A program made the translations under genes and the position numbers. 64,000 nt of DNA from a virus. Lineage: Duplodnaviria; Caudoviricetes. Of the stretch, positions 9,427-41,779 are shown in pieces (position 1 is the stretch's first letter; each line of letters starts with the position of its first letter). The stretch lies in the IMG/VR virus record IMGVR_UViG_3300005973_000002. One strand, written 5' to 3'. The notes below the pieces were generated by a model. The model had not been told where the DNA came from. It saw only the letters and a list, made by a program, of their open reading frames with translations, and made no database searches.

Positions 9427-9680
9427 AAAATTATTCAAATGAATTTCACAGAAATTACTAAGCATCATTGCCGTATCCTTGTAAGTATGGGACTACAAAG
9501 AAAGAATAGATAGTTCACACCCTGCATTAGCACAATAACGCTTGTAAGTTTAAGCAAATCGTGGTCCACTATTTCAATCAAAAACACAGATTGTTCTTCA
9601 AATGATTTTACATTGAGCACGCATCTAAGATACAGTTACAACTCAAACGTTCTCTGCTTGAGCATCTTTTTCTTGCTTAG

Positions 9681-9817
9681 TCGAGAAGGTAGGGATCGAA
9701 CCTACTATCATCCGTTGGATACGGAAGTCAAGAACATACATGTTCACACAATTATGAGTCATGTAGCACTTGTGGCATCCTTCACTGGGACCGCTTTTCC
9801 AGTAAGCTATCTTCTCG
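9681..9817 (-). ncRNA. tRNA-like RNA with a large internal expansion (137 nt)
   Basis: Acceptor CGAGAAG/CTTCTCG, D arm GCTT-ACTGGAA-AAGC and T arm GTAGG-TTCGATC-CCTAC, with about 85 nt between the D and T arms. Confidence 0.65.
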
Positions 9818-9818
9818 T

Positions 9819-9905
9819 TGGTGGAAGGTTGAGGTGTCGATCCCCACAGCCGAAGCTGCGCACTGTTTTCAAGACAGGCCCCGGAGCCGTCCGGGTTAAC
9901 CTTCC
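9819..9905 (-). tRNA. tRNA-Ser(UGA)
   Basis: CTTGAAA loop, long variable arm, CCA. Confidence 0.88.
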
Positions 9906-10602
9906 AAAATTATCATTGACATGTATCATATCAGTCGTTTATATTCTTACAAACTCTATTACTCGCCTTCTGTAGGTTTGCTTACTTCAAGATTTACTTC
10001 TGCTAAAACTTGTTCAAGGCCCACTTGGTCAGTCTCTTCTTCACCTTTTTTAGTAAGGTTATCACACATAGTTTTGTGATGACATTTCAAACCCTTGTTG
10101 GCTGATACATGAATGATAAGTTGTTTTTGTTGTCAACAAAAACAACCAAGTAGTTACGCAGACCGTGTCTAGAATTATTTACCCATCCATCTTTCTGTTA
10201 GCACCCTCAACCAGCATGCCAAAACTTTCTCGTTCGTTGTTGAATGCTCACAAATCAACGACGTTGCTAAAAGCCCCAAACTAATAAATTAAAAGACGAA
10301 CAGCTTTCTGCTTCTAAAATAGAAACACATCACCTGCTCCACCGAATTGGCGGATAAAGCCTAACGCATAATTCCAACCAGCTTCGTTGGCCTGAAAGAG
10401 TGACACAGAATATCGATTATCTGTGACTTCATCCTCCCAAACCCATCGTATTTCTTTTTTTATTTCAAAAATCTTGCGAAGTTGAACATAGTCAACGTGG
10501 TTTCTATAAACCAATATAATGTTTTTAGTTCTAATAGCAAGAAGTGAACCAAAGATAGCAAATTGCTTTATTTCTTTGTCTTCTGTTAAAAACTTGATTG
10601 CA

Positions 10603-17731: not shown

Positions 17732-17856
17732 CGGTATCCACAGGAATCGAACCTGTCTTGTGAGTTGCCTCGTCAGGCACCGGTAGCGGTCCCACAATGT
17801 CTCCCAGCACGGCCGTAGCCATGAAAGCGCAATGTTAGCGCTTATTGACGAATACC
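17732..17856 (-). ncRNA. tRNA-like RNA with a large internal expansion (125 nt)
   Basis: Acceptor GGTATTC/GGATACC, G73, T arm ACAGG-TTCGATT-CCTGT, D-like CAAT/ATTG stem, branched insert. Confidence 0.65.
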
Positions 17857-18209: not shown

Positions 18210-18298
18210 CGACACAACGACCGGGATTCGAACCCGGACTAGGAGCCTACTAAACGCAAATGCTGGGCCCCTGTGCTCCCATTACACTATCGTGTGTC
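18210..18298 (-). ncRNA. tRNA-like RNA with an 18-nt anticodon loop and bulged acceptor
   Basis: AGGGGCC/GGCTCCT stem with loop CAGCATTTGCGTTTAGTA; T arm CCGGG-TTCGAAT-CCCGG. Confidence 0.6.
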
Positions 18299-21976: not shown

Positions 21977-22444
21977 TTAATTATATCCGCCTTTACAATG
22001 TGTAGGTAATGTCGCATTACAATTTGGACATAAAAATCTTAGATTTTCTAATCTGTTATCATTTCTTATTCCATTTATATGGTCAAGAATCAATGATATC
22101 TTTTTTCCATTCCAATTATCATCCAATGGACACATAGAACAAGTGTAAGATATTAGTTTGTCTTTGACAATCCTATTTCTAAGAACAGATCTTGCAACTG
22201 TAGAATTTACTACAAATATATCTTTGTATCCTCTTTTGCTTAGAGATTTTGTCTGATACAAATAATTTGCCATTTCTTTTCTACCTAAAAAATGACTAGT
22301 GTCTATATTCCATTCTTTTATTTTCTTTTTTAGAGTTTTGTACGCAGAACTAGAAGCATTGCGCTCAAATTTATCTAAAACCATCTTGTAGCTCAATGAA
22401 ACTTTCACCGCTTCTTTTAGCGTTTTTTCTGTATATTGTTTCAT
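21977..22444 (-). CDS. HNH homing endonuclease
   Basis: CSMC...LDHINGIRNDNRLENLRFLCPNC; real start ATG 22444. Confidence 0.9.
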   Translation of the reverse strand: MKQYTEKTLKEAVKVSLSYKMVLDKFERNASSSAYKTLKKKIKEWNIDTSHFLGRKEMANYLYQTKSLSKRGYKDIFVVNSTVARSVLRNRIVKDKLISYTCSMCPLDDNWNGKKISLILDHINGIRNDNRLENLRFLCPNCNATLPTHCKGGYN

Positions 22445-22474
22445 AGAAATGCTCTTCCTTTGAGCTATGGGAGC
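22445..22474 (-). pseudogene. Orphan tRNA 5' half fused to the HNH start codon
   Basis: GCTCCCA-TA-GCTCAAAGGAAGAGC-A-TTTCT then ATG; D arm identical to tRNA-Arg(UCG) at 16614. Confidence 0.7.
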
Positions 22475-22500
22475 AAAGATAACTATCCTCAGCAAATCTA

Positions 22501-22588
22501 GTTTGCCGATGGGACTCGAACCCATACTGGACCGGGTTCGAGCTTTCGCCCTACTACCAGCGCCTCTGCCAAATTGGGCTACGGAGGA
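22501..22588 (-). ncRNA. tRNA-like element with an insert in the anticodon loop
   Basis: Leu-type D arm GCCCAATTTGGCAGAGGC; GCTGG/CCGGT stem around a 21-nt loop; T arm present; acceptor partly mismatched. Confidence 0.55.
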
Positions 22589-27021: not shown

Positions 27022-27100
27022 TGTGTTTACTCCGATTGCAGTAATCTGCCTGTGAGTAAATAGTTGTCTTTAGGCATTATTCTTTTCTTAGAAAAAATTT

Positions 27101-27774
27101 TGGTCGTTCCGGGAAGAATCGAACTTCCATATTCGCTTTATCAGTCAACCAATCCAAGTTGGCGTAGTTTCTTCTTTACAGCAACGTCAGACACACCGAC
27201 AATTTTGGCTATTTCTGTATAGGTCATCTTGTTTTTTACAGCTAAACTCAAATCAACCTTTTCCCATTTACCTTTGATTTTAGTTTTGCCAACACAAGCC
27301 TGCGAACAATATTTTCGCAAATCAGATTTCAATTTACCACAATGTTTACAAGGTGTTAGATTTATATGTTTTTCTTTGCGATATTTCTCAAAAGAAAAAT
27401 CAAATCTAACAATATCTTTTGGGATTGTTGTGATTTCGTCATGAACTTCACGATGACAATTTGCACAAAGTAAAACACATTTTTTTGCTTCTTTTACTAG
27501 TTTTTCCCATCGTGCTACCTTGTTCCATTTTGAAAATGTGAAATCTTTTTCATCTTTATTTAGATGATGGAATTCTAAAGCTTTTAGTGTTTTACTGTAT
27601 CCACATATTCCGCATTTACTTCCAAAAGCCTCTTTGAGACGTTTAATGGTGCGTTCACGCCATGCTTTTACATACTTGTATTCTGCCATCGTCTAACCTC
27701 AATGCATAACTATATCATAGTTGGATATAAATCTATAGAGGTTCGATGCCCTTAGGCCATTAGACGACGGAACG
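27101..27774 (-). pseudogene. tRNA-Ile(GAU) split by an HNH gene (3' half 27101-27144; 5' half about 27745-27774)
   Basis: 5' acceptor CGTTCCG pairs fully with 3' CGGAACG-A-CCA; D arm upstream and CTGATAA loop plus T arm downstream of the HNH ORF. Confidence 0.85.
27141..27689 (-). CDS. HNH homing endonuclease inside tRNA-Ile
   Basis: CGICG..ALEFHH...KCVLLCANCHREVH; C-terminal HTH-like segment. Confidence 0.9.
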   Translation of the reverse strand: MAEYKYVKAWRERTIKRLKEAFGSKCGICGYSKTLKALEFHHLNKDEKDFTFSKWNKVARWEKLVKEAKKCVLLCANCHREVHDEITTIPKDIVRFDFSFEKYRKEKHINLTPCKHCGKLKSDLRKYCSQACVGKTKIKGKWEKVDLSLAVKNKMTYTEIAKIVGVSDVAVKKKLRQLGLVD

Positions 27775-27788
27775 ATATGCCGGATCAA

Positions 27789-36035: not shown

Positions 36036-36716
36036 TTACTTTAATCCTGTTATTTTACCACGATAATAATCTTTGTAGGATATTTTCTTACCAGTAATGT
36101 GACAACTTACAATGTTGTGCTTTACCTGGATGGTGCGAATCTTATCTCCACGCATTCCGGAGCCGACCTGTTCTTGACGAATTTGCTCACGCTTTTTCGA
36201 ATATATTTTTTTCTTTTCACTTAAGAGCTTTGCTTTTAAGATTGCAAGAGCATTTTCTCGGTTAGTTTTTTGACTTTTTGAACTCTCAGCTCTTACAGTA
36301 ACACCAGATGGTAGATGTGTTAACTGAACAGCGGTTGCATTCTTGTTTCGATGTTGGCCACCAGGCCCACTTCCGCAAGTAAACGATTCTTTTAAATCCT
36401 TAGGATCTATATGAATTTCCTGCTGCTTTGCCTCAGGTAACACAGCTACCGTAATAGTGCTGGTATGTACTCGCCCACGTTTTTCGGTTGGTGGTACACG
36501 TTGCCAACGCAAGCCACCAGCTTCACTTTCAAAGAATCTTATTACTCCTTTTCCAGAAACCTTAAAAACAACAATATTTTCGTTAATTGTTATTTCTTCT
36601 ATAGAAAAATTCATAAGATTACAAGCTTTCCCATAAATTCCAAATTGTACGTGTATCAAATCACGGGCATCGGCACCACCCTCTCCGGGCCTTATTTCTA
36701 CAATTATACTTTCCAT
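36036..36716 (-). CDS. Short RF1-like peptide chain release factor
   Basis: VEIRPGEGG, QRVPPTEKRGRVHTS (PxT), SGPGGQHRNK, GMRGDKIRT; no N-terminal domain 1. Confidence 0.88.
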   Translation of the reverse strand: MESIIVEIRPGEGGADARDLIHVQFGIYGKACNLMNFSIEEITINENIVVFKVSGKGVIRFFESEAGGLRWQRVPPTEKRGRVHTSTITVAVLPEAKQQEIHIDPKDLKESFTCGSGPGGQHRNKNATAVQLTHLPSGVTVRAESSKSQKTNRENALAILKAKLLSEKKKIYSKKREQIRQEQVGSGMRGDKIRTIQVKHNIVSCHITGKKISYKDYYRGKITGLK

Positions 36717-39029: not shown

Positions 39030-40205
39030 TCACTTTACAAGTTTTGTAAACAGCTCAGTCTCACGTCGTTCAATTTCTTGTCCGATTTCTCGTCCCTTTA
39101 AACCCTGAGCCATCAACTCTTGTCCACTCACGGATGGTTCGTATTTAATAAATGCATCTACCAAATTCATGTCCGGCTCACCACTAAGTTGAGCAAATTC
39201 CTTCAAGTCCTCAGGAGAAAGTCGTGTCGGCTTCCACAATTTTTTCAAATGATAAGCATTCTCGGGAGAAAGGTTTTGAAAAAGATTAAGAAAAGCAATT
39301 TGCCTAGTTTCAACTACACTGTATTTTAAGTTGTTTAACTTTTGAGACAAAACTTTAGGATTGTTATCTCGTGTAAGAAGAGCAAGTTGCACTGGGATGT
39401 TCTTTGTTTCTTCATACCACGTGTTTAGCTTTAACCCAGGTAAAATCTTTTCCCATAAATTGAAAGAGTCATAAAGACGATGTAAGGCCCTGACGGATTG
39501 GGCACTCTTAATGCTTTTCAAGAATTCATCTCTGATTCTTTCAGGCGACACACCCTCTAAGGAATTATTTGCCCTAATGGCGTCTTCGGTCGGTTTATCA
39601 AGCCCAGCACCCATACGAGCTGCAAATCTAATAGCTCGCAAAATTCTCAGTCTGTCCTCATCAAATCTTTCTGAGGGATCTCCAACAGCTCTAACCACAC
39701 CTTTTTCTAGATCTTCAAGACCGCCTACCAAGTCCACAACTTCTTGACTGTCGATGTCATAAAAAAGTGCGTTAATTGTAAGATCACGACGTTTCACATC
39801 ATTTTCAATAGTAGTAAACTCAACTGCATCGGGTCGTCGACCCACCAAAGACTTAAATTCTCGATATTCTTCTGGAAAAAGTTGTGCGGCTTTATTTTTC
39901 CAATTAGCCGACTCTGTCAACTTGTTTGTGGTTGTTGGGGTAAATGTGATAAAGATACCATCTGTAGGATCACCCTCCACGACACTGATACTATCAGTGC
40001 TGTACTCATCGAAAATTTTATAGTGTTCATCCCACCAATCTTCTTCGGGTGTACCTGCTTCATATCGACATCCGAGTGTATGAGTTTCAATGAACCAGCC
40101 ATTTACAATAACAGTATCACCACAAGTTCTTGCAGTCTTCAATTTAGCCAGAAGGTCATTTCCAGCCTTTTGAACGGTTGCAGGTAAATCTTCATACTTG
40201 GTCAT
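39030..40205 (-). CDS. cca: CCA-adding enzyme (tRNA nucleotidyltransferase), C-terminal piece
   Basis: DVKRRDLTINALFY, RFDEDRLRILRAIRF, VSPERIRDE; probable start ATG 40205 with GGAG 8 nt upstream. Confidence 0.85.
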   Translation of the reverse strand: MTKYEDLPATVQKAGNDLLAKLKTARTCGDTVIVNGWFIETHTLGCRYEAGTPEEDWWDEHYKIFDEYSTDSISVVEGDPTDGIFITFTPTTTNKLTESANWKNKAAQLFPEEYREFKSLVGRRPDAVEFTTIENDVKRRDLTINALFYDIDSQEVVDLVGGLEDLEKGVVRAVGDPSERFDEDRLRILRAIRFAARMGAGLDKPTEDAIRANNSLEGVSPERIRDEFLKSIKSAQSVRALHRLYDSFNLWEKILPGLKLNTWYEETKNIPVQLALLTRDNNPKVLSQKLNNLKYSVVETRQIAFLNLFQNLSPENAYHLKKLWKPTRLSPEDLKEFAQLSGEPDMNLVDAFIKYEPSVSGQELMAQGLKGREIGQEIERRETELFTKLVK

Positions 40206-40920
40206 CAACATATCTCCACATAAAACCACCAGCTTGTTTCCTGTACTTTTTGTTTCTGGCAGCACAGCTAATGTTTCTAATTCCCAAGTCTTTTTGAGCT
40301 TTATCAACACTTTCCCAAATTTGGATCATTTCACCGTCTAAAGTCATTTGCATTACTTTTTTCTTGTTCCAAGCTGATTTTCCTCTACGAGCTTTAGAAA
40401 TCTTCTGCTTTTGTGCTTCTGTACAAGGTTTTCCAAGTCTTCTGGTGTTACCTATAAGTGACTTGGAAATATTTTTCTTGTGTACAGAAGTTAATTTTCG
40501 ACCCTTATGCTGTCTAGCAACTTGTGCTATTTTTTGCTTCGCCTTCTCACTGTGCTTATAACCGTGAGATCCAACCTCTCCTCCAGAAGTGACATTTGTT
40601 AAATCACAACCTTTGTCTTTGAAATATTGAATCCAATACCGCTCTCGTTCTGTCAACAAACTTTCTTCACATTTTTCAATGGCAATTATCCTCAGTTTGG
40701 AGAGCAATCCTTTTCTCTCCAATAATCGCAACCAATTATTCTTATGCGAGTTATTCTTGTTCCTTCGATGCTTATGCTTAGAGAGTCTAACGTTTAGCTT
40801 TGATACAGTTTTACCAACATATCTGACCTCATTAGTCATTGGGCATACGAGCGAGTAGACGCAGCCTTTTCTTCCAGTTTTCTGGCTGTTTTTCTTGGAT
40901 GAATTTAACGAAACTTTCAT
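40192..40920 (-). mobile_element. GIY-YIG homing endonuclease inserted in cca
   Basis: VYSL..RYVGKT, RLSKH, ERYWI, NUMOD-like repeats. Confidence 0.9.
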
Positions 40921-41779
40921 AATCATCTTTTAAATATGAATCTTCACGGAAAGTTGCTATTTCATATTCATTGCCCTCAGGGGTTATAACATTGATAACA
41001 CCAAATGCCTTCCCAACTTCCATTGTTTTGTACTCTGGGAATTTCCTGATTATTTCAAGAATGCGATTAGGATTAGCATCTGTGGCCACATCATAATCCT
41101 TAGGTTCTTTACCCAGCAATGCATCCCGTACTGCTCCACCTACAACGTAAAGTTGATGTCCAGCTTTTGAAAAGATTTGTGATAATCTTTGAATGTCAGC
41201 AGGTATTTTCATATTAAAGGGCTTTCGCACTGATTCAACTAAGAAATTGAAATTTTCATTTAAAATTTCATCAATAAGCCATTTAACGCTTTCGTTTTTA
41301 GCCTCAGTTTCTTGGTTGTCTTTTTTTGGCACCTGATCCAGTGGCGAAGGTTGCTTTTTCTGCAAATATTTTTTAAACTTGCGCTCCCGTTTTTTGCGAG
41401 GTACAGTGTAATGTTTTTTTAACAACTGATCAATGGTAGATTGGTACCAGCGCTTTGCCTGTCCAGCAAGTTTGTTGTCATCTACAAAATGATCAATATA
41501 AAGACGCACTCCGTGCGTATCACCGGATTGACGTGGGTCCATATCTGGATCCATTTTAAGCAAGCCTGACAACTGGTCGAGTTTCTTGGTTGGAGAGTAT
41601 CCTCCCCTGACTGATGACACGGAAAACTTAGCAAGTTTAGTCAAATCATCATGAATTTCGGGAAAATTTTTCTTCATGTGATTAACGTAATCTTGCGATA
41701 GCTCCTCACGGTGTTCGAGCATGACTTCATCAAGCACTTCCTCAATCAAATATACAAGGTCTTTCTTTTTCATGGACAT
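40832..41779 (-). CDS. cca: CCA-adding enzyme, N-terminal catalytic piece with about 180 extra N-terminal residues
   Basis: LYVVGGAVRDALLGKEPKDYDVATDA, VGKAFGV, EIATFR. Confidence 0.88.
   Translation of the reverse strand: MSMKKKDLVYLIEEVLDEVMLEHREELSQDYVNHMKKNFPEIHDDLTKLAKFSVSSVRGGYSPTKKLDQLSGLLKMDPDMDPRQSGDTHGVRLYIDHFVDDNKLAGQAKRWYQSTIDQLLKKHYTVPRKKRERKFKKYLQKKQPSPLDQVPKKDNQETEAKNESVKWLIDEILNENFNFLVESVRKPFNMKIPADIQRLSQIFSKAGHQLYVVGGAVRDALLGKEPKDYDVATDANPNRILEIIRKFPEYKTMEVGKAFGVINVITPEGNEYEIATFREDSYLKDDYESFVKFIQEKQPENWKKRLRLLARMPND

Follow-up and report, generated by a model that had tools for sequence, protein, structure and literature searches.

A conserved gene for an expanded tRNA-like RNA in a phage tRNA array

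We analyzed a 64,000-nt stretch of DNA from a giant phage (the window) that contains an array of ~50 tRNA genes, nearly all on the same strand. Within this array lies a real, selected and conserved gene for an expanded tRNA-like RNA, here called the 9681 element. Three hairpins occupy the place of a working anticodon arm, so the RNA is not expected to decode. The best explanation, to which we give an even chance of being right, is that the element specifies a stable RNA that does not decode and is matured by the tRNA machinery; we infer its processing, the retention of its insert and its inability to decode. Phage tRNA arrays are usually seen as kits for codon supply or counter-defence, and whatever fails tRNA models is discarded by annotation pipelines. 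The 9681 element indicates that these arrays also include tRNA-shaped RNAs that are conserved and strongly selected, yet unable to decode as they stand.

The window encodes a T4-type large terminase, an intein-bearing DNA polymerase III alpha subunit, an RF1-like protein and homing endonucleases. It is present in five hypersaline-lake metagenome DNA runs, its probable source, and in no listed RNA run; an identical AsnB is encoded on contigs of up to 461 kb. Searches of INPHARED phages, by DNA or by AsnB protein, gave no close relative. The gene at 36036–36716 (minus strand) encodes a 226-aa protein with PCRF and RF-1 domains, resembling class I release factors, and adjoins tRNA-Leu(CAG). The parts of the 9681 element, with the two genes most relevant to its predicted maturation, are as follows.

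9681–9817, minus strand: the whole expanded tRNA-like RNA gene, 137 nt, from sequence reading; ARAGORN in intron mode spans 9680–9817
9811–9817, minus strand: 5' strand of the acceptor stem, CGAGAAG, 7 bp with 9682–9688
9808–9810, minus strand: connector ATA, 3 nt and unusual, preceding the D arm
9793–9807, minus strand: D arm, GCTT-ACTGGAA-AAGC, with a 4-bp stem and GG retained in the loop
9777–9791, minus strand: hairpin 1, GTCC-CAGTGAA-GGAT, with a 4-bp stem, beginning 1 nt (G) past the D stem, where an anticodon stem starts
Between hairpin 1 and the long hairpin, minus strand: linker GCCA, from sequence reading
9729–9772, minus strand: long irregular hairpin, 44 nt with 17 pairs, from covariation
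Between the long hairpin and hairpin 2, minus strand: linker ACT, from sequence reading
9711–9725, minus strand: hairpin 2, TCCGT-ATCCA-ACGGA, holding the CCA that ARAGORN takes as a Trp anticodon
9706–9710, minus strand: linker TGATA, 5 nt, from hairpin 2 to the T arm, from sequence reading
9689–9705, minus strand: T arm, GTAGG-TTCGATC-CCTAC, its stem invariant among close homologs
9681–9688, minus strand: 3' strand of the acceptor stem, CTTCTCG, and discriminator A, from sequence reading
9677–9680, minus strand: 3' trailer CTAA, common to array tRNAs without encoded CCA
9819–9905, minus strand: tRNA-Ser(UGA) with encoded CCA, called by relaxed ARAGORN only and ending 1 nt before the first base of the 9681 element
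39030–41779, minus strand: split gene of the CCA-adding enzyme/poly(A) polymerase family; a GIY-YIG homing endonuclease ORF (40192–40926) lies between its two pieces or overlaps them

This anatomy agrees with the preliminary description of a 137-nt tRNA-like RNA having acceptor, D and T arms and a CTAA trailer. The three middle hairpins reported there were all found, with hairpin 2 better drawn as TCCGT-ATCCA-ACGGA; what had been taken for a 4-nt variable loop ahead of the T arm is actually the 5-nt TGATA. The 7-bp acceptor, the GG-bearing D arm and the T arm with its TTCRA loop are those of a canonical tRNA upper half. Below them, no conserved anticodon arm (5-bp stem, 7-nt loop with U33, stable anticodon) is present; in the window, A would stand at position 33 of both small hairpins. 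The RNA is predicted to be stabler than shuffled sequence (MFE z-score –2.9). Default ARAGORN called no gene at 9681–9817, ARAGORN in tmRNA mode found no tmRNA, and Rfam gave no match to the region, including RF00005, at gathering score or at E ≤ 10. Two other features were considered and rejected. An ORF on the opposite strand (9613–9975, 120 aa) overlaps two RNA genes and contains several 1-nt indels among homologs. A 7-bp pairing between the D loop and the hairpin 1 loop, seen in the MFE fold of the window, is missing in relatives.

Relatives were reached through homologs of the neighbouring asnB gene, which led to syntenic contigs. Four distinct homologs of the 9681 element were found in other metagenomes, on contigs L029, L030, L080 and L031; a further contig, L077, carries an element identical to that of L030. 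In carriers, the homolog sits between tRNA-Ser(UGA) and tRNA-Ser(GGA). AsnB identity to the window is 83% for L029, 82% for L030 and L077, and 78% for L031. A covariance model, R1, scored 133 bits on the window and 150–155 bits on L029, L030, L077 and L080. Part of a fifth homolog was recovered from a hot-spring run (X7), where both ends of the element are present and positions 9710–9787 have no coverage at a likeness of at least 80%. In the window, a 245-nt spacer (9432–9676) separates the element from tRNA-Ser(GGA). This spacer is missing from L029, L030, L080 and run X7, and the two genes there lie ~6 nt apart.

The L031 homolog (L031:973–1194) is longer, at 222 nt, and its 5' half is fully canonical (U8 A9). 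It encloses a nested mini-tRNA-like unit (L031:1091–1147), with an acceptor-like TTGGATA/TATCAAA, a D-like hairpin and a perfect T arm, TTAGG-TTCGAAT-CCTAA, at 1123–1139. Homology between this middle region and the long hairpin of the window was not established. Three other contigs (L025, L081 and L082), whose AsnB is 87% identical to that of the window, lack the whole gene: tRNA-Ser(UGA) is followed by ~15 nt and then tRNA-Ser(GGA). The 9681 element is thus dispensable, being absent from these relatives.

An exact 25-mer of the element had no match in IMG/VR. Pattern searches of that database gave 5 matches for the long hairpin and 34 for the T-arm region, none homologous under model R1; the long R1 matches among them were pairs of adjacent tRNAs. 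No homolog was found at JGI metagenome and IMG/VR loci with AsnB of 40–60% identity (L001–L024). One of these, L022 (92% over the first 24 residues), starts at tRNA-Ser(GGA), so the site falls outside it. More distant AsnB carriers (L032–L036) have no upstream tRNA array.

RNAalifold, applied to the window, L029 and L030, gave six helices with 42 pairs. Homologs in four other contigs retain all six, and the proportion of paired cells is 99.2% for three sequences and 98.8% for the four distinct sequences. Compensatory changes occur at 9 of the 42 pairs: five in the long hairpin, two in the acceptor, and one each in the D stem and hairpin 2. Shuffled controls yielded 3.1–3.3 such pairs, with none of 500 reaching nine, and sliding the 3' partners yielded at most one. 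The acceptor double changes in relatives are G-C to A-U and A-U to U-A. In the long hairpin (9729–9772), 97–98% of cells are paired, and the innermost pair of hairpin 2 changes from U-A to C-G in L030 and L077. In L031, hairpin 1 contributes two more compensatory pairs (GCGCC/GGCGT) and the T stem another (U-A to C-G). The sample is small, with the signal spread over every variable helix, and the covariation supports all six. The preliminary description had named a lack of homologs with covarying stems as part of what would refute it; such homologs exist, and their stems covary.

The loops of the middle hairpins behave differently from the stems. The 4-bp stem of hairpin 1 is kept in all homologs, with loops of CAGTGAA, TTC(G), TGAG and ATGTGA (7, 3, 4 and 6 nt). 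This variation in length rules out an anticodon loop for hairpin 1. In hairpin 2, the loop reads ATCCA (5 nt) in the window, L029 and L080, and ATATTCCG (8 nt) in L030 and L077. None of the three middle hairpins has a conserved 7-nt loop with U33 among the homologs. Thus the two small hairpins, called anticodon-like at the outset, have loops that vary in length and sequence, and neither is a conserved anticodon arm. It follows that the unspliced RNA cannot be a normal decoder.

To assess constraint, we compared L029 with L030. Four-fold degenerate sites of asnB differ at a level of 0.49 (49%) between the two, and both flanking tRNA-Ser genes are 100% identical. In the top half of the element (acceptor, D, linker and T), just 1 of 58 positions differs. 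In the middle (hairpin 1 through hairpin 2, ~85 nt), 30 of 84 positions differ, 13 of them among the 52 paired positions and 17 among the 32 unpaired. Constraint on the top half thus equals that on a working tRNA, and at ~0.5 neutral divergence this excludes a decaying pseudogene, a reading that we rejected on the strength of the 1/58 difference. In the middle, the contrast between paired and unpaired positions shows that the fold is constrained and the loop sequence free, unpaired positions changing at about the neutral rate. Loop variation and near-neutral change at unpaired positions together weaken two of the three options first offered for this gene, an anticodon-mimicry decoy and a conserved spliced decoder. 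The third, a new non-coding RNA, fits best, with the addition that it has the top half of a tRNA.

Two versions of the middle module circulate together. L030 and L080 have asnB genes that are 98.9% identical, and their 1.3-kb upstream regions are identical except for five differences at the far end and for the element itself (L030:1532–1673 versus L080:766–902), where 30 differences fall within the ~85-nt middle. Here L080 has the L029 version. The flanking tRNA-Ser genes are identical in L029, L030 and L080, so ordinary recombination explains the swap, and a single event cannot show selection. This exchange bears on the idea that the element is a decoy or sponge, whose hairpins, resembling anticodon arms, absorb anticodon nucleases or other tRNA-targeting defence proteins. 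We consider this very unlikely. The setting, a very large phage tRNA array, is one linked to counter-defence, two of the hairpins have the size of an anticodon arm, and the presence of different modules in such near-identical phages could reflect selection for exchange. But recombination across 100%-identical flanking tRNA-Ser genes accounts for the swap equally well, and the loops on which mimicry would depend are the least conserved part of the element, ranging from 3 to 8 nt and including a TTCG-type cap in L029.

A different possibility is that the 9681 element is an intron-bearing tRNA. A non-ribozyme insert of ~65–67 nt would follow position 31, at the 5' edge of the anticodon loop; proteins would excise it and a phage RNA ligase would rejoin the halves, giving CCA/Trp in the window and perhaps another anticodon in relatives. 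Several observations make this worth weighing, though we judge it unlikely. ARAGORN in intron mode, at its default threshold, reports a tRNA-Trp(CCA) with U33 and A37 once nt 32–98 are removed, and this 67-nt removal leaves a formally valid anticodon loop, CTCCAAC. A 4-bp exon–exon stem, formed by the 5' strand of hairpin 1 and the sequence 3' of hairpin 2, is possible in the window, L029, L030, L077 and L080. An intron would be expected to look like this insert, structured but with free loops, and other tRNA genes of the window have inserts, of 13 or 14 nt or containing an HNH gene, at or next to the 31/32 junction. Moreover, "enigmatic" tRNA introns are known from Lak phages (PMC6784885).

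Yet the putative anticodon loop is not conserved, reading TCCAAC in one version and TCCGGC plus a 3-nt insertion in another, between elements whose top halves differ at 1 of 58 positions. Intron-mode ARAGORN calls disagree accordingly: Trp for the window, Gln(CTG) for L029 and Gly(TCC) for L030, which means that there is no consistent spliced tRNA. When all deletions across the region were enumerated, none at common alignment columns gave a tRNA in all three. The spliced stem has merely 4 pairs, including one or two wobbles, and a G·G; in L031 it is impossible, and the local hairpin 1 covaries there instead. Identity elements also differ, with C1-G72 and A73 in the 9681 element versus A1-U72 and G73 in the two normal tRNA-Trp genes of the window. 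As for known splicing signals, Rfam gave no group I core (RF00028) or other ribozyme at gathering score or at E ≤ 10, and direct reading of the sequence revealed no bulge–helix–bulge (3-nt bulges 4 bp apart). The junctions proposed by ARAGORN, 31/32 and 98/99, fall in the terminal loops of separate hairpins, and nt 33–36 cannot pair with nt 92–95. No relative was found to carry an insert-free (middle-less) allele. The more specific proposal, that the 65–67-nt module is a new kind of protein-dependent intron at the 31/32 edge of the anticodon loop, with neither ribozyme nor bulge–helix–bulge, removed by an unknown endonuclease and sealed by a phage RNA ligase, is in our view quite unlikely. Should the middle prove to be removed by splicing, a bacterial virus would offer evidence of tRNA splicing that depends on proteins.

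Interrupted tRNA genes occur elsewhere in the window. Those at 18210–18298 and 22501–22588 (both minus strand) are tRNA-like genes with inserts of 13 nt and 14 nt, respectively, where the 5' strand of the anticodon stem meets the loop. ARAGORN puts the insertion points at 29/30 and 32/33, adjacent to 31/32. Two HNH endonuclease genes lie at or near the 31/32 junction of split or half tRNA genes. At 21977–22476 (minus strand), an HNH endonuclease ORF directly follows a 5' half-tRNA (ending TTTCT, then ATG), and a complete tRNA-Arg(ACG) comes after its stop. At 27100–27775 (minus strand), a tRNA with perfectly matching acceptor halves, CGTTCCG...CGGAACG-A-CCA, is split by ~640 nt holding a 182-aa ORF. 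Neither locus has a group I match at Rfam gathering score.

Several features of the array bear on how the 9681 element would be matured. Among the 49 tRNAs called by ARAGORN in the window, 23 end in N73-C-TAA and 17 have an encoded CCA, followed by A in 15 of the 17. This arrangement resembles that of T4 precursors, which lose a UAA tail ahead of CCA repair. The trailer of the element matches the N73-C-TAA class, as the preliminary description had observed of its CTAA; it reads A-CTAA in the window and G-CTAA in close relatives (L029, L030), the discriminator being A in the window and G in L029, L030 and L080. Given this common trailer and the CCA-adding enzyme gene of the window, the earlier suggestion that the element is processed like the neighbouring tRNAs seems reasonable. 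Upstream, tRNA-Ser(UGA) at 9819–9905 escaped both default ARAGORN and Rfam (E ≤ 10). The same gene precedes the homolog in L029, L030, L031, L077 and L080; the L029 and L030 copies are 100% identical to each other and 84–86% identical to that of the window. A promoter-like site lies at 9952–9925 on the minus strand. The tRNA-Ser(UGA) and the element probably form a dicistronic precursor.

On the reading that we prefer, a non-decoding stable RNA, the element and the tRNA-Ser(UGA) ahead of it would most likely share a transcript. RNase P would generate the 5' end of the element, and its 3' end would undergo trimming and addition of CCA, as in the other CTAA-ending tRNAs of the array; the phage encodes a CCA-adding enzyme. 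The product would be a stable RNA of ~140 nt with the normal upper half of a tRNA and, in place of a working anticodon arm, three self-contained hairpins that would preclude decoding. It may act through its upper half, by binding tRNA-handling proteins or being acted on by them, and the middle module would be required only to stay folded.

The closeness of the two genes also suits another explanation. The element could be a relic tRNA gene kept as a processing signal only, where the RNase P cut frees the 3' CCA end of tRNA-Ser(UGA) and the middle need only fold on itself without disturbing cleavage. In all carriers, the CCA of tRNA-Ser(UGA) lies only 1–2 nt ahead of the first base of the element, and in L025-type phages, which are without the element, tRNA-Ser(UGA) has no encoded CCA. 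The pattern of constraint, strict in the top half and limited to the fold in the middle, fits as well. Even so, we hold this explanation to be distinctly improbable: elsewhere in the array, tRNAs mature with no partner of this kind, the D arm and the 44-nt hairpin, with its five compensatory pairs, go beyond what a cleavage signal requires, and the middle region of L031 is larger still.

The location within a cluster of three tRNA-Ser genes raises a further possibility, that the element is a chargeable tRNA with giant extra arms, recognized by an anticodon-blind enzyme such as SerRS and put to a non-decoding use. SerRS reads the long variable arm of tRNA-Ser by shape, and recognition of this kind would match stems that are kept and loops that are free. 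Against this, the D arm is of class I (4-bp stem, 7–8-nt loop) and the neighbouring tRNA-Ser genes are of class II, the discriminator varies between A and G, and the element has no sequence likeness to the adjacent tRNA-Ser genes. We regard such a role as extremely unlikely.

Among known RNAs, the closest analogue of the 9681 element is RNA C of phage T4 (species 1 RNA, rnaC), judging by architecture and setting. T4 is related to the window phage by terminase type. Like the element, RNA C (139 nt) is encoded among the tRNA genes of a T4-type phage, shares their strand and measures ~140 nt. Folding and alignment to model R1 give RNA C a 7-bp acceptor-like stem, CGGAACG/CGUUUCG, which leads straight into a perfect T arm (UUCGAAU loop), so that in both RNAs an acceptor-like stem and T arm enclose extra hairpins. 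The two are not homologous in sequence; the mere 21 bits that model R1 assigns to rnaC come from the generic acceptor and T arm. Also, RNA C is extended at its 5' end and lacks a recognisable D arm, whereas the 9681 RNA has a full cloverleaf top half, with its own ends forming the acceptor. Rfam holds no family for either. The puzzle of RNA C dates from the 1970s and is unanswered. T4 RNA C and RNA D are stable RNAs whose genes adjoin the T4 tRNA genes; both are expressed, with function unknown (PMC3014915; PMC9697503). The 9681 element would be a second, independent case like RNA C, with clear covariation and natural variants.

Other comparisons are more partial. The tRNA introns of Lak megaphages are, like the 9681 insert, short and non-ribozyme, found in very large uncultivated phages, conserved among relatives and detected only under eukaryote or intron settings (PMC6784885). 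For Lak phages, insert-bearing and insert-free alleles were aligned, and one of the inserts looks like a tRNA (Devoto et al. 2019, PMC6784885). The 9681 insert, by contrast, has no insert-free allele in relatives, no T-arm-like part and no conserved putative anticodon. Unlike the tRNA-Thr insert of Lak phages, the insert region of the window does not form an acceptor-like stem with a T arm, no T-loop motif is present in 9711–9791, and the consensus fold of the region is three plain hairpins. Group I introns in the anticodon loops of bacterial and phage tRNAs likewise interrupt the anticodon stem-loop region, but 67 nt is far too short for one and the insert has no Rfam ribozyme match. Class II tRNAs (Ser, Leu, Tyr, Sec) share with the element an extra helix before the T arm whose fold is kept and whose sequence is free. 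The element differs in having two extra helices, one of 44 nt, together with a class I D arm and no conserved 7-nt anticodon loop. A full-text literature search found no description of the element or its architecture. The availability of carriers, non-carriers and two exchangeable middle modules makes the question of its role open to experiment.

The window holds a second expanded tRNA-like gene, of 125 nt, at 17732–17856 (minus strand), directly after a 94-nt tRNA-Ile(UAU). This gene has no sequence in common with the 9681 element. Its acceptor is GGTATTC/GGATACC and its T arm CAGG-TTCGATT-CCTG, and it ends with a G-CTAA trailer.
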